A stretch of DNA of 64,000 nt from Minisyncoccota bacterium (lineage in GTDB: Bacteria > Patescibacteriota > Minisyncoccia > Phycocordibacterales > XYD1-FULL-46-19): the NCBI GenBank assembly GCA_041665625.1, contig JBAYIK010000002.1:33126-97125 (forward strand), read 5' to 3'. Below the pieces are notes generated by a model. The model had not been told where the DNA came from, did no database searches, and was given only the letters and a program-made list of their open reading frames with translations. Both the position numbers and the translations under genes were made by a program. Position 1 is the first letter of the stretch, and every line of letters begins with the position of its first letter. Below, piece by piece: positions 8,455-63,536 of the stretch.

Positions 8455-8928
8455 ATGAAAATGAACAAACCACAGAGAACCAACCCTAAGAGCAATGTTG
8501 TAAAACTGGCCTTATGCACGGTGGGGCTCATATGCGAAAGGAGGAAAAACAAGTTGCCGACTCTTGCCTCCCTTCTGATATGCGTCGCACCGAAAAACTT
8601 TCTTTCTGTGGTCCATATCGTCAAACTTTTTATTTCCTCTAAAATCAGAAGGAAAAGTCGGGCTAATGGTAAAAATAAAATTATAATAGGTAGGTTAATT
8701 GTTCATAAACTAGACGGCAATTTTGATACTGAGGATATTGAGCTGTCTTGTTCAGGACCGAAGCAGTCAATAAGCCCAGAGACAATTAGAGAATTCAAGC
8801 AGATTGTGGAGGAAGAATACGGGCTAGTGATAGACAAGACTGACGCCTCTAGAATACTTTGTGGGTTGACCAACTTTTTCGACTTGCTAGCAAAAATAGA
8901 TTATCGAGAAAAAATAAAAGATGGTTGA
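8455..8928 (+). CDS. Hypothetical protein; the real start is probably internal
   Basis: ORF immediately upstream of the recombinase. Confidence 0.35.
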   Translation: MKMNKPQRTNPKSNVVKLALCTVGLICERRKNKLPTLASLLICVAPKNFLSVVHIVKLFISSKIRRKSRANGKNKIIIGRLIVHKLDGNFDTEDIELSCSGPKQSISPETIREFKQIVEEEYGLVIDKTDASRILCGLTNFFDLLAKIDYREKIKDG

Positions 8929-8973: not shown

Positions 8974-10560
8974 ATGAAAGATAATAATATGGAAAAAATT
9001 ACAAAAATGGTTAAGGCAGTAATCTTCCCCAGAGTCTCTTCGAAGGAACAGGAGGAAACAGGTTACTCCCTAGACGCTCAGCAGGAGCTGTTGAAGAATT
9101 ATAGTGACAAGCACTCGTTTGAAGTGGCCAAGGCCTTTAGAGTTTCGGAATCGGCTAGTGGTAAAAAACAAAGGTCGACCTTCAACGAAATGATGGCCTA
9201 TATGGATAAGAACAAAATAAACATACTCGTCTGCGAAAAGGTCGACAGATTAACTCGTAATTTTAAGGACGCAATTTTTATTGATGAATGGCTTGATAAA
9301 AACGAAAATCGACAGATTCATTTAGTCAAAGACGGTATAGTCTTGCACAAGTATTCTAAATCACAAGAAAAGCTTAATTGGGGAATCAGGATACTGTTCG
9401 CCAAAAATTATACTGATAATCTTTCGGAGGAAGTTAAAAAAGGCCAAAAACAGAAGTCAAAGGAAGGGTGGCTACCAACAAAGCCACCGCTGGGTTATAG
9501 AACGATAGGAGAGAAGGGCCACAAGGTGCACGTTGTTGATGAGAAGGTTGCTCCTTATATCAAAAAAATGTTTGACCTTTATGCCACAGGCAACTACTCA
9601 ACAGACTCTTTGGGGGACAAAATGTATAAGCTTGGGCTAAGAAGCCGTGGTGGTTTTCGAGTAGTTAAAAGCAAGATTCACAAACTTCTCTCTGACCCCT
9701 TCTACTATGGAATGTTTGTCTGGAAAGGTGAGGTCTATCAAGGGAAGCACGAACCGTTAATTGATAAAGACCTCTTTGGCCAAGTCAGGGAAAAAATGAC
9801 CAGGGGTAGTGCTCCCTACCACAACAAACATTTTAAGGAATTAAGAGGTAAGATATTTTGTGGAAATTGTGGCAAGACTGTAACCTGGGAAAAACAGAAA
9901 GGCTCTTGGTATGGGGCTTGCAAACAGTGCAAAGCTCAACTAGCCGACAAGAGGCAATATATTAAACAAGAAAATGTTGAGAACTACTTGCTGGACCTTA
10001 TAATCGCTACAGCACCCAAAAACGAAAGGATTCTTGCTGTTCTTAACAAGGCCCTCAAAGAGAGTCATAGCGAAGAAATTATATATCACGAAACACAGGT
10101 CCAGAGTATAAACAATAGCCTTACTCGTATCCAACAGAGGAAAAAGGTTCTCTATGATGACCGCCTAGATGGTAGAATTTCTCCCTCTGAATATGACCAA
10201 AAAATTGAGGAGTTTAGGCAAGAAGAAACTGACTTAATAAATTCGCTAAGCAAATTGAAGTCTGACAACACAGAATACTATAGAGTTGGTATCGCCCTTC
10301 ACGAGCTCGCTCTACGAGCAAGAGAAATATATTTAAGCAAAAAGGCTACAGTGGAAGAGCGTCGCTTGCTCTTGTCTTACTCTTTCTCGAACGTCTCGGT
10401 TCTACGGGGAGATATAAGGGCAGAGTACACAAAAGCGTTCCAGTTTTTGATTGATTGGATGCCGAAGGTAAATGAAACTCTCGAACTCACAAAAGACGTT
10501 GAGAATAAACAACAAAAGAGCACTTTCGTGCCCTCTTGTCCTATCCTGCTCCGCGGGTAG
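8974..10560 (+). CDS. Large serine recombinase (integrase / resolvase family)
   Basis: The N-terminal catalytic domain VIFPRVSSKEQEE...ILVCEKVDRLTRN carries the catalytic Ser. A recombinase domain follows, then the zinc ribbon CGNCGK...CKQCK and a coiled-coil C-terminus. The stop codon 10558-10560 overlaps the 3' end of tRNA exon 2. Confidence 0.85.
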   Translation: MKDNNMEKITKMVKAVIFPRVSSKEQEETGYSLDAQQELLKNYSDKHSFEVAKAFRVSESASGKKQRSTFNEMMAYMDKNKINILVCEKVDRLTRNFKDAIFIDEWLDKNENRQIHLVKDGIVLHKYSKSQEKLNWGIRILFAKNYTDNLSEEVKKGQKQKSKEGWLPTKPPLGYRTIGEKGHKVHVVDEKVAPYIKKMFDLYATGNYSTDSLGDKMYKLGLRSRGGFRVVKSKIHKLLSDPFYYGMFVWKGEVYQGKHEPLIDKDLFGQVREKMTRGSAPYHNKHFKELRGKIFCGNCGKTVTWEKQKGSWYGACKQCKAQLADKRQYIKQENVENYLLDLIIATAPKNERILAVLNKALKESHSEEIIYHETQVQSINNSLTRIQQRKKVLYDDRLDGRISPSEYDQKIEEFRQEETDLINSLSKLKSDNTEYYRVGIALHELALRAREIYLSKKATVEERRLLLSYSFSNVSVLRGDIRAEYTKAFQFLIDWMPKVNETLELTKDVENKQQKSTFVPSCPILLRG

Positions 10561-10586: not shown

Positions 10587-11133
10587 CACTAATCCTGATG
10601 TTTCCAAAAGGCGTGGACTATATCATCACCCGGTCTGGGTGCAAGGCGCTTCCCCCGTACTTACGGAGTACTCTCTTTCGAGATAGTCTCTGAACCTTCC
10701 CTCTGATTTCTCTCGGGGCTTGGCTGCTGATTACCCTCGTCTTGACGTTAGGGCTTCCAGCAATTCACCTTGTTATTCATTCCTAAATTCCTTTAGGAAG
10801 CTGCGTAATACCTTCGTGTACTTCCATGTGACAATTAGCGCAAAGCAAAACGCATTTAGCAATCTCCTTCTCTATCTTCTCCCAAGATCTAGTTAATCCT
10901 CTTACAGATAAACCGAAATCTTTTTTCTTAGGATCAATATGATGAAAACTGAGAGCGCTCTGACTCTTAGAATAACCACATATCGCACACTTGCTACCTT
11001 TTGACGCACGAGCCATTTCTCTTAATTTTTTACGACGAAGAGATACAGCTTGGCGCAAATAGACAGCACGGTCTTTATAAGTTCTTTTGTCTGGCATACT
11101 CATACAAGTATACCATATTTGAACTCATGTGAC
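10587..11133 (-). other. Group I intron in the tRNA anticodon loop, carrying an HNH endonuclease ORF
   Basis: Reading the minus strand after the ORF: P-like gaattgctggaag, Q-like aatcagcagcc, R element GTTCAGAGACTAT (forward 10683-10696) and S element GATATAGTCCACGC (forward 10611-10624). P7 pairs GACTA with TAGTC. The 5' splice follows a U and the 3' splice follows a G. Confidence 0.7.
10783..11103 (-). CDS. HNH homing endonuclease encoded inside the group I intron
   Basis: 106-aa ORF with CAICGYS...HHIDPKK...CANCHMEVH, which is an HNH motif with a zinc-finger-like Cys/His arrangement. It lies between the intron 5' end and the P3-P9 core. Confidence 0.75.
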   Translation of the reverse strand: MSMPDKRTYKDRAVYLRQAVSLRRKKLREMARASKGSKCAICGYSKSQSALSFHHIDPKKKDFGLSVRGLTRSWEKIEKEIAKCVLLCANCHMEVHEGITQLPKGI

Positions 11134-16002: not shown

Positions 16003-16135
16003 ACTCAGCCAAACAACACAGAAAACCCCTCCAGCGAGGGGTTTTCTTACGTTTCGTCATGGCCATTTTGTCATAGTTCTGCGAACAAAGGATGACAAAA
16101 ACCGGCTGGCCATAACTACACGAGGTTGTTTGACT
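16003..16135. repeat. Palindromic MITE-like repeat, copy A. It is diverged and in inverted orientation relative to copies B, C and D.
   Basis: caaacaacacagaaaacc plus the hairpin AAAACCCCTCCAGCGAGGGGTTTT (16022-16045) plus ggccattttgtcat...atgacaaaaaccggctggcc...cgaggttgtttgac. Each segment aligns to the reverse complement of the 187-bp element at 45437 and 48706. It lies directly after the DsbA-like gene stop. Confidence 0.6.
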
Positions 16136-16245
16136 GAATTAATTCTCGCTTAATTAAACGAGACCTCACTTTAACGAACAACAGAAAAGCCCCACACGTC
16201 GTGCGCGCGAGACCTCTCTCACGCACCCCGTGTGGGGCCGCTAAA

Positions 16246-16683
16246 TCATTGGGACGGGTCATTCAGCTTCGGGCTAAACGTCCCGTCAATGTCGAACTCC
16301 TTACCTTCGACCAGCAGCTCGAGAGGGATCTTCCTAACCACCCGTTCCCCATAGCCATGTGGCCCGGGGATCTGGAGCAAGGCCGTACCGTCTGACCCAT
16401 TGACGACGTGGACAACCTTGTAGTGCCCAGACGAAAGGTCGTCGTATGTCAGGTACAGGTGGTCTTCCTTGTACTGGATGACCTGCCCCCTGTGGATGGA
16501 CTGAAGCTCGGCCAGGACGGCCTTGTCTTCGACACCCCATCTCGCCTGAAAAATGATGACGGAAAGGAGGGTGATGAAGACAAGGATGGAGACATCGGAT
16601 ATCCACCGAAGGCTCTGCCTCATCTTCACGAGTTCCCCCTTTACTACCTCCTCAAAACTCTTTTCTTCGGGCTTCTCTGCCAT
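16246..16683 (-). CDS. Hypothetical single-TM protein; GC-rich, probably a foreign gene
   Basis: 145 aa with a strong SD (AAGGAG) 8 nt before the ATG. Local GC is well above the surroundings. It is bracketed by repeat copies A and B. Confidence 0.55.
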   Translation of the reverse strand: MAEKPEEKSFEEVVKGELVKMRQSLRWISDVSILVFITLLSVIIFQARWGVEDKAVLAELQSIHRGQVIQYKEDHLYLTYDDLSSGHYKVVHVVNGSDGTALLQIPGPHGYGERVVRKIPLELLVEGKEFDIDGTFSPKLNDPSQ

Positions 16684-16811
16684 GATGGAATTCTCCTTCC
16701 GTTTTGGCGTACTTTTCCATTGTCAGACTCACACGAGCCATAACTTTCTGCCCATTATTATGCACCTATTAAAGCTATTTGTCAATATAAACGTAATGTC
16801 AGCTCCGATAA

Positions 16812-16865
16812 GAAAACCCCTCGCTGGAGGGGTTTTCTGTGTTGTTTTATTGGCTAAGCCGAGCG
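16812..16865. repeat. Palindromic MITE-like repeat, copy B: a partial right end containing a terminator hairpin
   Basis: gaaaacccctcgctggaggggttttctgtgttgttttattggctaagccgagcg matches the right end of the 187-bp element. It lies directly after the rpoD stop. Confidence 0.6.
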
Positions 16866-16867
16866 GT

Positions 16868-18187
16868 CTAATAACCTTGAAGTTTCTTCGCCTTCTCATG
16901 CTGTCTTATCTTCTCATGAGCCTTAGCCTCAATCTGACGAATGCGTTCACGAGTGACACCAAACTCTTTACCCACTTCTTCGAGGGTGCGCATTACCCCA
17001 TCTTTGAGACCATGACGCATCTCCAAAATTCGTTGTTCTTTCATCGTGAGGTCGCTCATGATCTCATCAATCTGATCACGAAGGATACGACGGGAGGTGT
17101 CTTGGTCGGGGGAAGCAATCTTGTCGTCGGCGATGAATTCGCCCAAGGTGCTCTTATCATCATCGTCGTCGGTTGGCTTATCTAAACTTGCAGTGCTCTG
17201 ATCAATCTTCTCAATGGTGTGGATTTTCTCAACCTCAACACCCATCTCGGTAGCAATTTCTTGTGGCAACGGGTCACGACCCAAGTCTTGAGCTAAGCGA
17301 CGATAAACCTGTTTATACTTAGCGATAGTCTCCACCATGTGCACCGGAATACGGATAGTACGTGACTGGTCAGCCAAAGCACGAGTGACAGCCTGACGAA
17401 TCCACCAGGTGGCGTAGGTTGAGAACTTATAACCCTTGCGCCAGTCAAATTTTTCTACGGCCTTGAAGAGGCCGATATTCCCCTCCTGAATTAGATCGAG
17501 TAAGGTTAAGTCTTGACTACGGCCAATATATTTCTTGGCAATCGAGACAACAAGACGAAGGTTGGCATTGGCCAGATCTTTCTTGGCATCATCATCCCCA
17601 GCCAAAATTCTTTTAGCTAAATCCTTTTCTTCATTACCGTTAAGGAGTTTGTGACGGCCAATCTCACGCAAGTACATTTGGACAGAGTCAAGAGAGACAT
17701 CACCTCGTTCATGTTTGATCTTCTCATCCACTTTCATATCTGAATCAAGCAAAGATCCTTCTTCAAGAATATCAATCCCCGACTCTTCAAACTTGGTATA
17801 GAGTTCGTCTAAGAAGATAATATCATTCTCAATATTAGGAAATTCTTTTAGAATCTCTGAGTAAGTTACAAAGTGGCGTTGTTTGCCCTTGCCGATCAAG
17901 TTGTCCATCTTCTGCTTCAGCTTAGACTCCATGGTCTGACCCTCTTTCTTCATGGCGACTACTTCTTTTTTATGGATGACAAAACCCTTACCCGCAGGTT
18001 TCTTGGCTGACTTTTTAGCAACAACTTTCTTCTTTACCACCTTAGCCTTCTTAATAACCTTTTTCACAGCCTTGGCTTTCTTGGTCACCTTTTTCTTGGC
18101 GACCTTCGCCTTCTTAACAACTTTTTTCACAACCTTGGCTTTCTTGACGGCTTTTTTCTTCGCAACGACTTTAGTTTTTTTCTTCAT
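16868..18187 (-). CDS. rpoD: RNA polymerase sigma-70 factor RpoD with an N-terminal lysine/alanine-repeat (histone-H1-like) extension
   Basis: Regions 2-4 are conserved: [33 protein letters not shown] and [14 protein letters not shown]. The N-terminal roughly 60 aa is [10 protein letters not shown]-type repeats. Confidence 0.9.
18001..18187 (-). repeat. Tandem roughly 30-bp coding repeats (K/A/V-rich) at the rpoD 5' end
   Basis: Repeated aagaaagccaaggttgtgaaaaaagttgtt-type units encode [10 protein letters not shown]. Confidence 0.55.
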
Positions 18188-28399: not shown

Positions 28400-29116
28400 T
28401 TATAAACTATTTTTCTTCAGCTTCCACTTATCAATCTCGGCGTGGTGGCCGGAGAGGAGGACCTTAGGGACGCGATATTTCTTTTTGTTGAAAGTAAGAA
28501 CCTCAGGGCGGGTATAAATCTCCGAAATTGAGATGCGTCGCTCCTCGATTGATTCATCTTTACCTAAGACGCCCGGTAAACGACGAGTGATAGCGTCTAC
28601 GACGATCATCGCAGGAACTTCTCCACCGGTCAGTATATACGGACCGACTGATAAGTCATCAGCTTTAAGAATTTTTTTGACCCGAGCGTCGAGGCCCTCA
28701 TAACGTCCGCAGATCAAGACAATATGTTTAGTCATTAATTTGTCAGACCATTCCCCTTTTCTAAAGCCAGCAAGTTTATCGGCGAGAATATTGTCGAAAA
28801 TTTGGCCAGCGGGAGAAAAAATATAAATTTTGGGCTTAGTCTTCGAAGTCTTCGTTTTAGCGAGAGCTTTACTCACGGCCTTAAGCACTGGCTCAGCCAA
28901 CATCACCATACCGGGACCACCTCCGTAAGGACGACCGTCAGTCTTTTTGTAATCTAATCTACCATCCACTTGTTTGCCAATTGTACCAGCGTAGTCACGC
29001 GGATTATAATAAGAAATTTTTATTTTCTTCTCTTTCTGGGCGCGACCAAGAATCGAGGCGTTTAGATACGCCTCGATGGTCTCGGGAAACAAAGTAATAA
29101 TGTGGAAATTTAACAT
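28400..29116 (-). CDS. trmD: tRNA (guanine37-N1)-methyltransferase
   Basis: SPOUT fold with the TrmD-type N-terminus MLNFHIITLFPE. Confidence 0.85.
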   Translation of the reverse strand: MLNFHIITLFPETIEAYLNASILGRAQKEKKIKISYYNPRDYAGTIGKQVDGRLDYKKTDGRPYGGGPGMVMLAEPVLKAVSKALAKTKTSKTKPKIYIFSPAGQIFDNILADKLAGFRKGEWSDKLMTKHIVLICGRYEGLDARVKKILKADDLSVGPYILTGGEVPAMIVVDAITRRLPGVLGKDESIEERRISISEIYTRPEVLTFNKKKYRVPKVLLSGHHAEIDKWKLKKNSL

Positions 29117-30220: not shown

Positions 30221-30319
30221 GATTTTTCGATTAATTAATAAAACAAAAAACTGCACTATAATTATAGCACAGTTTCTTGTTTTTTAAAAGCTCTGAAACT
30301 TGCCCGACCTATCGGCGGG

Positions 30320-45433: not shown

Positions 45434-45436
45434 TCA

Positions 45437-45622
45437 AGCTCGGCGTCGTTCGGTAAAACAACCTCGCGGAGCTACGGCCAGCTGGTTTTTGCCATTTGGT
45501 CGCAGACCGGCAATATCAAGGTCCGACCTTGATATTGCGATGGCAAAATGGCCGTCGCGGAGAGTAAAAAAACCATTCGCAGGAATGGTTTTCTGTGTTG
45601 TTTTACTGAAGCGACGCCGAGC
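45437..45622. repeat. 186-bp palindromic MITE-like element with terminal inverted repeats, copy C
   Basis: TIR agctcggcgtcgttcggtaaaacaac ... gttgttttactgaagcgacgccgagc, an internal near-palindrome ggccagctggtttttgccat...atggcaaaatggcc, and the hairpin aaaaccattcgcaggaatggtttt. About 95% identical to copy D. It starts 3 nt after the thrS stop. Confidence 0.8.
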
Positions 45623-45766
45623 ACCCCTAGGCGTTATCGAACACCCAGTGTTAGATAATAAGAAATATATGTTGCCCACCCAGACCAATCTTCTAAAAAG
45701 TCCTCGGATCTCCTCGTGTATCTCGGCCAGACATTTTTATAAGCTTGTCTGGGCGGGGGCCATCCC

Positions 45767-45800
45767 AAAAGTGGCAAACACCAGGTGTTTGCCACTTTTT
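45767..45800. terminator. Terminator downstream of the 860-aa surface protein gene
   Basis: AAAAGTGGCAAACACC-agg-TGTTTGCCACTTTTTG. Confidence 0.6.
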
Positions 45801-45802
45801 GT

Positions 45803-48385
45803 TTACATTTTCTCAACCACCTTCCTCGTCACCGCCCCAAAGTACCCCTTGGCTGGCTTAATCTTGTTGGCCGTCTGGAACTTGATGAGAGCTTGTTGGG
45901 TAAGTTTGCCAAAGAGAGTTGTCTCATTGCCTAGAGAACCAAGGCCCTTGGTATCAACAGGATAGCCGTGGGTGTTTAAGAATTGTTGGAGTAGTTTGAC
46001 TTCAGAGTGTTTGGTGCCGAGTTTGAGATCACGGGTGAAGTTTGCTGCGCCCCGTGGGAGCAGAGCGACTTTACGGGCGAGGGTGGAAGTAGCAGAATCT
46101 GGCGTGAGATATTTAGCTTTAAGTTCATTAGCCAGTTTAATATTCCCCATGGCGTTGAGATTAGAGATTTGACTTTGGACGGAGTTGCCAGAGGAATGAG
46201 AGGCGGGGGCTTCAGGAGTAACGACAATATCAGGGACTTTAACTAGTTCAAAAGTATGAGTGGAGTAACCTCCTACGTAAGTGAAAGAGATTTTGCCATC
46301 GTCATCGGACATACATACGCCGTTGGTGCATTGGGAGTTGTCGGTGATGGCGGTGGTGGAGGCTGAGCCATCAAGCTTGAAAGTGTAGTTAACATTAGGG
46401 ACTAAGTCTCCAATGGTGTAGGTGGTGGAGGTGGCAACAGATGATGAGGCTGTCCAACTTTTATTTTGATCACCTGACTTGTCCCAAGTATTAATTACAA
46501 CATCAAGATAATCGGAATAGTTATTGGGGTCATAATCGCCAACTGGAGCAACAGCAAAGTCAGCTGTGACAGAGCTTGAGGTTGCTGAAGTGTAACGATA
46601 TTTGCCACTTTTATAAATCTTGATGTTGCCAGTGTGTTGAACAGGAGTACTGGTGGCGGAGTATTGAGGAGAATAATAAAGGTAGGCGGCAGTTGAAGCC
46701 ATCAAATTTTTACCCGTAGAGTTGGGGTGAACATTTTCTGCTATATCATAATAACCATCGGGCGAAGGAGACTGCCAAAGAGGATTTAGCATCATTTGAT
46801 CTAAATATGAACCACAAACATACCCCCTGATAACACAGTTAGCTTCAACCAGCTCATTTATCTCATGAATTTTTTCATCAGTATATAATTGGTTATTATT
46901 GAATGAGCCGTTACCAATCCAAATCGGAGTCGCACCCCAATCATTGATCTTATCCAAGATAGAAGTAATATAGTTAGCGTATTCCTGAGAAGTAGGGTAA
47001 GTGGAATCATAATCAGGGAATCTATTCACAAAGTCATTCACTCCAATTTCTAGAAAAATTGTATTTGGAGGGGAAACCGAGGACATTAATCCATCAATAG
47101 TGCTAAAAATTCTTACCATTGTTCCACCTGACCAAGCCGCTATAGTAGGATCGGAAGCGGAAATCCCAGTCAAAGTTGTAAAATGACCAGCTGGAGATGA
47201 AGCAGAGGCAGAAATAGAATCCCCCGCAAAAGCAACTTTATTTTGTAAGACAGGATGGGCATTATCGCTAGAACATTTATAGGCTCCGACGTCATTACCA
47301 AACCAAGATTCTCCGTTTATGTCAGTTGCAGGAAGAGCTGAAATTTCGCCATGTCCACAAGCAAGAGATGACGCGCTAAGTCTAAAGTCAAATGTGGAAG
47401 TACTGACAATCAAAGGATCCAAGAAATGATTAGAACCGTCTATACTAAAAACATGGCTAGACGATAATCCCGCGTGAGACTGAAAAAGCGGAAAAGTTGT
47501 ATCATAAGGCGAAGCATGGGGATTATAATAAACATTATTTTTAATAACCCATTTATCTGGATTATTAATTGCATAAAGATAGCCATCAACAGAACTTGAA
47601 AATTGGATAAATCCATAGGCGGGGCCCATATCGGTATAGAAAATATTATTTTTTATACTCACAGAAGAGCTAGCCGCCGAATTAAGAATGGGCTGACTAA
47701 ATGAGGGATAATTCAACGCAACAATTGTCGAATTATGAAGAACTAAATTAGTCTTGACTATCATTCCTACCGCAAATTTAAAACCGTAAATAACACTACT
47801 TTCAATTGTTATATTTGCCTCCGGCTCATTAATATTACCGATCGCATACTGCGAGCCTGAAATATTATGAAGAACAGATCGCCTTATTGTAAGATTTGCT
47901 ACACCATCCCCACTACTTATCGAAATTGCTTTTTCCGCAGTAGTATTCGAATCTATCTCGCAATCTTCAAAAGTTAAAGAGCTTGGAGCATAAAGCCAAA
48001 AATAACCCTTGCCAACAGAATTAGAATTAGTGAATTTTATATGCTTAAAGGTTATATCATTAGAAACATTAGTTTGAAAATTCAAAAAAGTATAATTATT
48101 AGTATTAGTTGGCATATCCATAATAACCGTCGCCCCTTCAGGATATGCCTCAACGGTTACTGTCCCCGTACCAACCGCATTATTAATAACGGGGTTAATT
48201 CTAGTGTTGGATCCATAATAAGTGTTATATGTTCCAGCCTCAACTTTAATAGAATCTCCTTTTGCCACTCGAGAACCAGTCAGAGCATAATTTAATGTTT
48301 TCCAAGCTCCTGCACCCGTGGTTGTGCCATGGCTCGTATCATCAGTACCAGTCGTCGAGATATACCAAGTCGCCGCACTCGCCAA
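45803..48385 (-). CDS. Large secreted cell-wall-targeting enzyme: pectate-lyase-like beta-helix, SGNH/GDSL hydrolase domain and C-terminal PG_binding_1 domain. It is predicted to be phase-variable. The two ATG starts lie at 48455 and 48462 in the other two frames.
   Basis: The in-frame start is only a TTG at 48385, which gives no signal peptide. SGNH blocks FAGDSIS, EIGVNDF and DIAENVHPNSTG are present. The C-terminal PG-binding repeat is LLQQFLNTHGYPVDTKG. Both ATGs upstream of the (CT)7 tract encode the start of a signal peptide. Confidence 0.75.
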   Translation of the reverse strand: MASAATWYISTTGTDDTSHGTTTGAGAWKTLNYALTGSRVAKGDSIKVEAGTYNTYYGSNTRINPVINNAVGTGTVTVEAYPEGATVIMDMPTNTNNYTFLNFQTNVSNDITFKHIKFTNSNSVGKGYFWLYAPSSLTFEDCEIDSNTTAEKAISISSGDGVANLTIRRSVLHNISGSQYAIGNINEPEANITIESSVIYGFKFAVGMIVKTNLVLHNSTIVALNYPSFSQPILNSAASSSVSIKNNIFYTDMGPAYGFIQFSSSVDGYLYAINNPDKWVIKNNVYYNPHASPYDTTFPLFQSHAGLSSSHVFSIDGSNHFLDPLIVSTSTFDFRLSASSLACGHGEISALPATDINGESWFGNDVGAYKCSSDNAHPVLQNKVAFAGDSISASASSPAGHFTTLTGISASDPTIAAWSGGTMVRIFSTIDGLMSSVSPPNTIFLEIGVNDFVNRFPDYDSTYPTSQEYANYITSILDKINDWGATPIWIGNGSFNNNQLYTDEKIHEINELVEANCVIRGYVCGSYLDQMMLNPLWQSPSPDGYYDIAENVHPNSTGKNLMASTAAYLYYSPQYSATSTPVQHTGNIKIYKSGKYRYTSATSSSVTADFAVAPVGDYDPNNYSDYLDVVINTWDKSGDQNKSWTASSSVATSTTYTIGDLVPNVNYTFKLDGSASTTAITDNSQCTNGVCMSDDDGKISFTYVGGYSTHTFELVKVPDIVVTPEAPASHSSGNSVQSQISNLNAMGNIKLANELKAKYLTPDSATSTLARKVALLPRGAANFTRDLKLGTKHSEVKLLQQFLNTHGYPVDTKGLGSLGNETTLFGKLTQQALIKFQTANKIKPAKGYFGAVTRKVVEKM

Positions 48386-48421
48386 GGACGGAAAACTAAA
48401 AAGAATACCCAGGGCGATTAC

Positions 48422-48436
48422 GAGAGAGAGAGAGAG
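48422..48436 (-). repeat. (CT)7C dinucleotide tract, a candidate slipped-strand phase-variation switch
   Basis: The forward strand reads gagagagagagagag. Adding one CT unit puts ATG 48455 in frame, giving MKNPLFTLSLSLVIALGILFSFPSLASA|ATW. Removing one CT unit puts ATG 48462 in frame, giving MKYEKSTFYSLSLVIALGILFSFPSLASA|ATW. Confidence 0.7.
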
Positions 48437-48475
48437 TAAAAAGTGGATTTTTCATATTTCATATAATTACCTTAG

Positions 48476-48553
48476 ATTATAGCAACTTAGGGCAATTAAG
48501 AGAAGTGGGGAAAGCTAAATTAACCAAAAATGTTAAACATCGGATGTTTAACA
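48476..48553 (-). promoter_or_regulatory. Extended -10 promoter (TGcTATAAT) plus an upstream perfect 11-bp inverted repeat, a candidate regulator site for the surface-protein gene
   Basis: Minus strand ...gttgcTATAAT with the -10 at 48481-48476. The palindrome TGTTAAACATC-g-GATGTTTAACA at 48531-48553 lies about 50 nt upstream. Confidence 0.45.
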
Positions 48554-48572
48554 TTTTTGGTGTGTTGTAATT

Positions 48573-48617
48573 AAAAACCCGCCACTTGGAGGTTTAACCT
48601 CCAAGTGGCGGGTTTTT
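48573..48617. terminator. Very strong bidirectional terminator insulating gyrB from the surface-protein locus
   Basis: Perfect 20-bp stem AAAAACCCGCCACTTGGAGGTT-taa-CCTCCAAGTGGCGGGTTTTT. Confidence 0.65.
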
Positions 48618-48705
48618 GCAGCTAAGCGAGGCTTAGTAATTATGAAAAGCTCCCCCTTCGCTCTTGCAGAGCTACGGAGGGACAGGCTCGTGAAGCTAGT
48701 ATCTA

Positions 48706-48892
48706 AGCTCGGCGTCGTTCGGTAAAACAACCTCGCGGAGCTACGGCCAGCATGGTTTTTGCCATTTGGTCGTAGACAGGCAATATCAAGGACTCCCCTT
48801 GATATTGCGATGGCAAAATGGCCGTCGCGGAGAGTAAGAAAACCATTCGCAGGAATGGTTTTCTGTGTTGTTTTACTGAAGCGACGCCGAGC
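48706..48892. repeat. 187-bp palindromic MITE-like element, copy D
   Basis: Near-identical to copy C with the same orientation. It ends 2 nt from the gyrB stop codon. Confidence 0.8.
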
Positions 48893-48894
48893 GC

Positions 48895-50967: not shown

Positions 50968-51032
50968 AAAAATAAACGCCAAAAGGCTTAATTTACTCCC
51001 CCATTATAGCATATTTGCCGGCCTTCAAACAA

Positions 51033-53843: not shown

Positions 53844-53962
53844 CTCCTGATTATAGCAAAAACCACCAATCCCGCCACCTCCCCCATCCCTCGCCAGACC
53901 TCAAGTGCCGCGCCCCTCGAAGCTTTAGCGAAGTGGGGAGCCCGAGGTGTTGCGAGGTGAAG

Positions 53963-59617: not shown

Positions 59618-59692
59618 GAGATTATTATAGCAAAAAACCGCTCAAAGAAAAAACCCGGCCAGCTTAGCTGGTCGGGTTTTTTAAATTTCAGA

Positions 59693-63473: not shown

Positions 63474-63536
63474 TCGTTCAAATTATAACAAAAGTAAAAA
63501 CTAATAGTAAGAGTAAGAAGCCACTAGACGCCCAAG

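Follow-up and report, generated by a model that had tools for sequence, protein, structure and literature searches.

A pure (CT)7 tract sets a predicted secreted wall enzyme out of frame with its conserved start codon in a Paceibacteria genome: a plausible contingency locus

We analysed a 64,000-nt stretch of contig JBAYIK010000002.1 from a Minisyncoccota bacterium (the whole stretch is called the window below) and, within it, an 860-codon open reading frame (ORF) on the minus strand whose product is a putative exported wall enzyme. The gene lies between the convergent genes thrS and gyrB and is flanked by R1 and R2, two direct copies of a structured repeat that resembles a miniature inverted-repeat transposable element (MITE). 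Read along the minus strand, the locus consists of a terminator, a palindrome, the promoter element TGcTATAAT, 13 nt, two start codons (ATG1 and ATG2), the sequence A(CT)7C G, the stretch VIALGILFSFPSLASA, and the remainder of the ORF, which ends at 45803 (Table 1). The CT tract falls within the region that codes for the signal peptide, and it is one unit above the state that would put ATG1 in frame with the body of the enzyme. When the tract was altered in silico, single-unit changes either joined the intact ORF to a start codon or cut it off from both. An earlier note on this DNA had called the locus likely phase-variable. On the evidence below it is a real and plausible but unproven contingency locus, structurally capable of phase variation, and a plain recent pseudogene, which fits the data almost as well, is nearly as likely.

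ATG1 and ATG2 occupy the two frames other than that of the body. Read directly on the minus strand, the ORF opened by ATG1 was MKYEKSTFYSLSLS and the one opened by ATG2 was MKNPLFTLSLSRNRPGYSF. The body frame is shut upstream by TGA at 48454-48452 and, independently, by TAA at 48469-48467, and it contained no ATG, GTG or TTG from this TAA down to the TTG at 48385. The TTG, which is the first standard start of the body frame, falls within the signal-peptide c-region, four codons ahead of the predicted signal-peptidase site (after ASA, between 48374 and 48373, with a mature start of ATWYISTTG), and no Shine-Dalgarno-like sequence was present ahead of it. An alternative genetic code (4 or 25) was rejected as a way of opening the body frame, since TAA at 48469 closes the frame without TGA and no in-frame TGA interrupts the long conserved genes. 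Starts at non-canonical codons of the body frame (ATC at 48448, CTG or ATT), or re-initiation there, were likewise rejected on inspection, as these codons were either too far from a ribosome-binding context or left an h-region that was too short.

The tract states from (CT)4 to (CT)10 were rebuilt in silico. With six or nine units ATG1 was joined to the body, giving MKYEKSTFYSLSLVIALGILFSFPSLASA/ATWY (a slash marks the predicted cleavage site) and products of 885 and 887 aa, respectively. With five or eight units ATG2 was joined to the body, giving products of 882 and 884 aa, and in (CT)4, (CT)7 and (CT)10 the gene was out of frame and no full-length product resulted. Signal peptides were judged by reading the sequence. 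The reconstructed ON leaders had the layout of Sec-type signal peptides processed by signal peptidase I, with MK(YEK) or MK followed by LSLVIALGILFSF and then PSLASA/A, so that both carried the n-region, h-region and AxA site that were present in every homologue. The minus-strand reading and the in silico states agreed with the frames, the two ATGs, the tract and the leaders as the earlier note had described them.

All of the full-length homologues (11 of 11) started with ATG and had a signal peptide that ends in AxA and leads into AT(W/Y)Y(V/I)S or a similar sequence. The nearest one, P0002 (886 aa, 64% identity), starts with MNYKKSLFLSSLVALVIFFSFPTFVSA/ATWYIS, and its DNA (locus L001) aligned with the window through TGtTATAAT, an identical 13-nt spacer and ATG1, with MKYEKSTF in the window aligned to MNYKKSLF in P0002. 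At the position of (CT)7 in the window, L001 has the impure sequence CCTCTCCTCTTT, and the leader in the window is 8 nt longer than that in L001, a difference of two codons and one CT unit. ATG2 owes its existence to one base, A in the orthologue and G here (AAA to GAA; TATAAA to TATGAA), and its origin from a 7-nt tandem duplication, considered on account of a Tandem Repeats Finder (TRF) row at 48450-48464, was rejected because the alignment with L001 showed this single-base change. Since the promoter, the 13-nt spacing and ATG1 are shared with the 64% orthologue, we read ATG1 as the ancestral start; by the same alignment ATG2 is a lineage-specific novelty, not an independent conserved start. 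With a leader 8 nt longer and with every homologue started from ATG, the sequenced state is best read as the gene of a conserved secreted enzyme thrown out of frame by slippage of one unit.

The extended -10 element in front of ATG1 was conserved in L001 at the same spacing. Its motif, TGNTATAAT, occurred 8 times in the window where 2.3 were expected, with most sites close ahead of a gene start (usually by 4-13 nt), and from this distribution we take it to be the characteristic -10 element of this genome; the extended -10 promoter proposed earlier is thus real. In several genes the motif ended only 4-8 nt before the start codon. This proximity would imply that leaderless or near-leaderless mRNAs are widespread in the organism, and the leader of the enzyme mRNA would be roughly 6 nt. 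At eight units, ATG1 would still open a competing ORF of 22 codons, 7 nt ahead of ATG2. Since a near-leaderless transcript would favour the 5'-proximal ATG1, (CT)8 is probably at best a weaker ON state. The earlier statement that two of three repeat-length states are ON presupposes efficient use of ATG2 and is weakened by the competing ORF.

Farther upstream, the palindrome was found to be longer than the perfect 11-bp one first reported: it is AT-rich and perfect over 39 nt, with 19-nt arms. It was not conserved upstream of the orthologue in L001, and could serve as an operator or form a second hairpin. The intrinsic terminator beyond it, also recognised before, has a stem of 21-22 bp and is predicted to insulate the enzyme gene from gyrB read-through.

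The body of the gene was intact, with no second lesion over 860 codons (2.6 kb). In Pfam, PG_binding_1 (PF01471), a peptidoglycan (PG)-binding domain, matched residues 793-855 with 32.9 bits versus a gathering cut-off of 23. Lipase_GDSL_2 matched residues 386-558 with E = 1.6e-5 and 25.9 bits, below its cut-off of 32.9 bits, and G388-D389-S390, N450 and H553, which correspond to SGNH blocks I, III and V, were invariant in 12 aligned sequences. The AlphaFold model (pLDDT 73) was all-beta over residues ~1-340, alpha/beta over 380-570 and a beta-sandwich over 575-716, with a helical C-terminal domain. The best Foldseek matches of the model were GDSL-family proteins (4rsh, TM 0.78 normalised to target), and a sequence search of the PDB returned a single marginal GDSL match. 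For the N-terminal region, Foldseek gave a weak match to the pectin methylesterase 5c1e (TM 0.40), and the homologues P0005 and P0009 carry PF13229 (Beta_helix). The domain make-up that had been proposed was borne out for a confident SGNH fold, in which GDS, N and H are invariant, and for PG_binding_1, with a possible beta-helix at the N-terminus. With the beta-sandwich added, the predicted product is plausibly an exported wall- or polysaccharide-directed esterase-type enzyme. The G+C content at third codon positions (GC3) of the gene was 0.35, versus a window mean of 0.43 +/- 0.06.

Table 1. Positions of the features at and around the enzyme locus (coordinates are those of the window)
Feature	Position	Strand	Detail
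Enzyme body as annotated from TTG	45803-48385	minus	860 aa
Beta-helix-like region	~47366-48385	minus	aa 1-340
SGNH hydrolase	~46676-47248	minus	aa 380-570
Beta-sandwich	~46238-46663	minus	aa 575-716
PG_binding_1	45821-46009	minus	aa 793-855
Rest of predicted signal-peptide h- and c-regions, VIALGILFSFPSLASA	48374-48421	minus	body frame
Pure (CT)7C tract	48422-48436	minus	within signal-peptide coding region of the 860-codon ORF
ATG2	48453-48455	minus	third frame; 19-codon ORF as sequenced, TAG stop 48398-48396
ATG1	48460-48462	minus	conserved start; 14-codon ORF as sequenced, TAA stop 48420-48418
Extended -10 element TGcTATAAT	48476-48484	minus	13 nt upstream of ATG1
TGNTATAAT sites	2879-2887, 30261-30269, 48476-48484, 51003-51011, 53850-53858, 59624-59632, 63482-63490		
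AT-rich perfect palindrome	48523-48561		39 nt, 19-nt arms, 1-nt centre; z = -6.5
Bidirectional intrinsic terminator	48573-48617		21-22-bp G+C-rich stem between an A run and a T run
Bidirectional terminator hairpin	45767-45799		4 nt downstream of enzyme stop codon
R1, structured MITE-like repeat	45436-45622	plus	~190 nt; begins 3 nt past thrS stop codon
R2, direct copy of R1	48705-48892	plus	ends 3 nt from gyrB stop codon
Further R copy	16005-16153	minus	
Further R copy	16809-16865	plus	3' fragment

We further determined how unusual the tract is in its surroundings. A census of dinucleotide runs in the window with TRF and regular expressions gave 114 runs of 3 units, 6 of 4 units and one of 7 units, so that (CT)7 was the only run of at least 5 units. 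Tri- to hexanucleotide simple sequence repeats (SSRs) were absent from the window, and homopolymers did not exceed 8 nt. No dinucleotide run of at least 5 units was found in a further 124 kb of related Paceibacterota loci, which brings the total with the window to ~188 kb. In third-order Markov simulations of the sequence, 7 units were reached in 1 of 200. The tract is therefore a real outlier against its background. The only other long SSR in the related loci was a G9 homopolymer in L001 (14329-14337), located ~30 nt ahead of an SMC/AAA-type gene.

The genomic setting of the gene was compared with that in other genomes. In the sister genome Ca. Vogelbacteria bin-1736 (L013), ThrRS and GyrB are 95% and 94% identical, respectively, to the proteins of the window. 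The corresponding interval (L013 1792-2556 versus window 45434-48894) is arranged as gyrB-R-(unrelated 111-aa ORF)-thrS, with a single copy of R at the conserved position of R2 and without the enzyme gene. The 64% orthologue in L001 is located between infC/rpmI/rplT and smpB, without R. Given its absence from this spot in the sister genome and the different placement of its orthologue, the enzyme gene is, by this comparison, accessory cargo in a variable spot. The R copy in L013 is ~89% identical to R1 and R2, and R1 and R2 resemble each other more closely (95.7% identity), which suggests an insertion or duplication through R. The two flanking MITE-like copies are those that had been reported.

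The tract was also compared between assemblies. The protein database contained two identical 860-aa entries in a 90% cluster, one from a JGI contig and one from an ENA/NCBI metagenome-assembled genome (MAG) of Candidatus Paceibacterota (MFA6476166.1), and both had been called from the internal TTG start by two annotation pipelines. The ENA contig k141_1276007 (L003; 134,967 nt), whose name we take to be of the type given by MEGAHIT, differed from the window at 1 of 14,583 bases and had the same (CT)7; the single difference fell outside the tract. An anchored pattern with a variable gap had no match in a collection of metagenome contigs, and a protein-based scan of metagenome contigs returned only distant, unrelated PG-binding domains. 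Looked up as exact proteins, the enzyme, GyrB and ThrRS led to the one ENA contig or to no record at all, and no further sample of this organism came to light.

We propose that the gene encodes a Sec-secreted, wall-targeted enzyme that would normally be translated from ATG1 on a near-leaderless mRNA driven by the TGnTATAAT promoter. In the simplest history, the Leu/Ser-rich core of the signal peptide would have become a pure CT repeat, (CT)6, in this lineage, and slipped-strand mispairing would then have added one unit to give (CT)7 in the dominant genotype. Ribosomes starting from ATG1 or ATG2 would stop after 14 or 19 codons, respectively, and the intact body would be made only from TTG 48385 and without a signal peptide, if at all, so that secretion would be OFF. 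A pure 7-unit dinucleotide tract would at the same time be a hotspot for insertions and deletions, and the gain or loss of one unit would restore the signal peptide, from ATG1 at six or nine units and, with probably lower efficiency, from ATG2 at five or eight. With reversion at a useful rate, the locus could act as a reversible ON/OFF switch of the Helicobacter pylori CT-repeat type. An accessory gene in a variable spot is the usual kind for contingency behaviour, and we counted this in favour of the switch. That a slippage frameshift has silenced secretion, and that the tract is mutable enough to reverse this, seems to us close to an even call, falling slightly on the doubtful side. The proposal in its most extended form would be a three-state switch in Paceibacteria, with strong ON from ATG1 at (CT)6/(CT)9, OFF at (CT)7 and weak ON from ATG2 at (CT)8, which would toggle secretion of a wall-acting esterase in host or own-wall interaction, would be carried by a repeat-flanked accessory cassette, and would be the first SSR phase-variable locus in the radiation; we consider this form doubtful and rather unlikely.

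Several results weigh against a switch. No ON allele or length variant was found, and both assemblies are OFF and perhaps not from independent samples. The comparison with orthologues, which the earlier note had named beforehand as able to refute its claim, went half of the way to doing so: an in-frame ATG was present and the pure tract was missing in 11 of 11 homologues. The sequences LSLS and SLSL did not occur in any leader, and there was no sign of selection maintaining the tract. A second SSR locus was found neither in the window nor in the related loci, so that no sign of a genome-wide strategy of phase variation was seen. No mutS or mutL was present among the scanned ORFs of the window, a scan of the window only, which says little. 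Moreover, the somewhat low GC3 and the accessory status of the gene would equally fit a gene on its way out.

These results lead to the strongest competitor, a plain recent pseudogene, in which slippage by one unit occurred once in an unneeded accessory gene, the OFF state became fixed, and the gene is decaying with reversion irrelevant. The OFF state of both assemblies, the missing tract in all homologues, the sister genome without the gene at this site, the solitary SSR in ~188 kb and the slightly atypical GC3 would all be expected of such a gene. However, the 2.6-kb body has remained free of a second lesion with its catalytic residues intact, the tract is still pure, and the promoter and ATG1 are preserved. 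A pure (CT)7 would also mechanistically yield revertants, and a strictly dead state would be hard to keep unless the event were very recent. The intact body, pure tract and intact promoter thus argue that the event was recent or is reversible, and they cannot separate a pseudogene from a switch. We regard the pseudogene as a serious possibility, nearly as likely as the switch and likewise below an even chance.

An error of sequencing or assembly would leave the gene ON, with a true tract of (CT)6 or (CT)8. Dinucleotide runs are known sites of indel errors, and the two assemblies, both of one strain, might derive from the same reads. Yet the JGI and ENA contigs came from different pipelines and assemblers and agreed on (CT)7 while differing at a single base elsewhere, and the 15-nt tract is far shorter than k-mers and reads. 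Error rates of short reads are low at tracts of 15 nt. Since the two pipelines agree on the tract, an artefact is unlikely, and we give it only a small chance. Recoding is another route by which a secreted full-length protein could be made from (CT)7, through ribosomal slippage on the CU repeat or through transcriptional slippage. The geometry would permit a shift of +2 from the frame of ATG1 or of -2 from the frame of ATG2 with perfect codon-anticodon re-pairing. Against this, no stimulatory structure was found (the fold of 48380-48470 was no better than that of shuffled sequences, z = -0.27), there was no X XXY YYZ heptamer, and the homologues do without recoding. Shifts of +/-2 and slippage of RNA polymerase on dinucleotide runs are rare, and we judge recoding to be very improbable. 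The least probable account is that the annotated 860-aa protein, called from TTG by two annotation pipelines, functions in the cytoplasm without a signal peptide, since that TTG lies only four codons before the conserved cleavage site with no Shine-Dalgarno-like sequence ahead of it, all homologues are predicted to be secreted, and a PG-binding wall enzyme would presumably have no substrate in the cytoplasm.

The closest mechanistic parallels to the proposed switch are in H. pylori, in which sabA and oipA are under ON/OFF control of CT repeats by slipped-strand mispairing (PMC5371856). The genes oipA/hopH, sabA, sabB and hopZ share with the present locus a pure CT tract in the 5' coding region, a frame set by the number of units, and an exported product that acts at the surface. 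The H. pylori tracts lie in the signal-sequence region and typically have ~5-11 units, so that 7 units are within range. The products differ, being porin-like adhesins of the Hop family in H. pylori versus a beta-helix/SGNH/PG-binding enzyme here, and the host here is a member of Paceibacteria, which belong to the Candidate Phyla Radiation (CPR). H. pylori also has many such loci with length variation from strain to strain, whereas here there is one locus of one length with orthologues that lack the tract. In the opa genes of Neisseria, CTCTT repeats encode the hydrophobic core of the signal peptide, length changes that keep the frame are tolerated, and those that break it switch the protein off. 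The position of the repeat in the signal-peptide core is thus alike, and the opa genes differ in having a pentamer unit, in forming a multigene family and in that their variation has been shown experimentally. The lic1 and lic2A genes of Haemophilus influenzae have CAAT repeats with ATGs in two frames upstream, which give strong-ON, weak-ON and OFF states. The present locus similarly has two starts in different frames before one tract, and ATG1 and ATG2 could do the same. However, lic1 and lic2A have a tetranucleotide unit and encode cytoplasmic enzymes that modify lipooligosaccharide, and ATG2 in the present locus is a single-base novelty.

Within the CPR, the nearest case is a hypervariable surface gene with PTD repeats in Gracilibacterium, for which a variable exported protein was described and slipped-strand mispairing was discussed (PMC6851277). 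In that gene in-frame 9-mer repeats vary the protein, whereas the tract described here would shift the frame and act as an ON/OFF control. The searched literature contained no work joining the CPR with phase-variable genes and nothing relevant for Patescibacteria and phase variation, in line with the earlier statement that tract-length contingency loci are essentially undescribed for the CPR; on mismatch repair in the CPR it contained nothing usable for Paceibacteria. The mechanism itself is textbook, and a confirmed switch would add a new lineage to a known mechanism. Bet-hedging by slipped-strand mispairing has so far been described mainly in host-adapted pathogens. Mixed tract lengths in the reads would extend it to ultrasmall uncultivated bacteria of the CPR and would single out the secreted wall enzyme as a target of fluctuating selection, which might act, for instance, while a cell attaches to a host cell or feeds on it. 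With uniform reads, the locus would be an ordinary frameshifted accessory gene, and a case in which annotation pipelines hide a frameshift by calling an internal TTG. Either way, the finding would add to taxonomic and ecological knowledge and bring no new concept.

The R repeat that flanks the enzyme gene was characterised further. Outside the window, the R family was found in at least six MAGs of other species, with 13 stretches (L007-L019) in five of Paceibacterota and one of Saccharibacteria. Ca. Vogelbacteria and other Paceibacterota MAGs each have several copies, and the Saccharibacteria MAG has one. The element is 165-205 nt long and consists of a ~26-bp closing stem, three inner helices (one of them with an insert of variable length) and a bidirectional terminator-like hairpin. 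It is non-coding, is present in multiple copies and has terminal inverted repeats of ~26 nt, which are the basic characters of a MITE. No duplicated flank that would indicate a target-site duplication was visible at R1 or R2. R had no match in Rfam at E <= 1 and none in viral contigs. In the consensus structure of 54 pairs, 97% of the cells were paired, versus 40-48% when the partners were slid, and compensatory changes were present in 15 of 54 pairs, versus 0-4 when slid. These compensatory changes in the stems suggest that R is under selection for a structural RNA or DNA role rather than as a transposase-binding sequence. R resembles the Correia elements of Neisseria, the enterobacterial ERIC and the pneumococcal RUP in being short, without an ORF, multi-copy and intergenic, often between convergent genes, and in having a terminator-like hairpin. 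It differs from them in having no sequence relationship to them, no evident target-site duplication, and stems with compensatory changes.

A further palindromic element was shared between this genome and that of L001. This G+C-rich element of ~70 nt, CCCTCGCCAGACCTC...GAGGTxTGGCGAGG, is located upstream of pheS in the window (~53880-53950) and, in L001 (8671-8731), in the region directly after the orthologue of the enzyme gene, and is 90% identical between the two. A GC-rich hairpin motif related to it is present at 48640-48700 of the window, between R2 and the terminator.

Other features of the window were noted as well. A full-length Rfam match to a group I intron (10594-10819, minus strand; 78.7 bits, E = 2.6e-18) is apparently intergenic, with no rRNA or tRNA host gene detected around it, and lies immediately downstream of a large serine recombinase (8974-10560, plus strand) with Resolvase and Recombinase domains. 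ARAGORN predicted a 97-nt tRNA-Lys(ttt) at 28985-29081 on the plus strand, inside and antisense to the ORF at 28400-29116; the Rfam tRNA model did not confirm it, and it is probably a false positive. The stop codons of 35 long ORFs were 26 TAA, 9 TAG and 0 TGA, with the trinucleotide TGA common in the sequence and absent in frame from the conserved genes. The wider ORF list has one or two small accessory-looking ORFs (8455-8928 and 16246-16683) that end in TGA, so that TGA stops are rare and not absent. An excess of TAG over TGA of this degree is unusual for bacteria that have release factor RF2. Finally, imperfect tandem repeats of 30 and 63 nt at 18020-18160, in the 5' part of a sigma-70 (rpoD-like) gene (16868-18187), encode a Lys/Ala/Val-rich N-terminal repeat.

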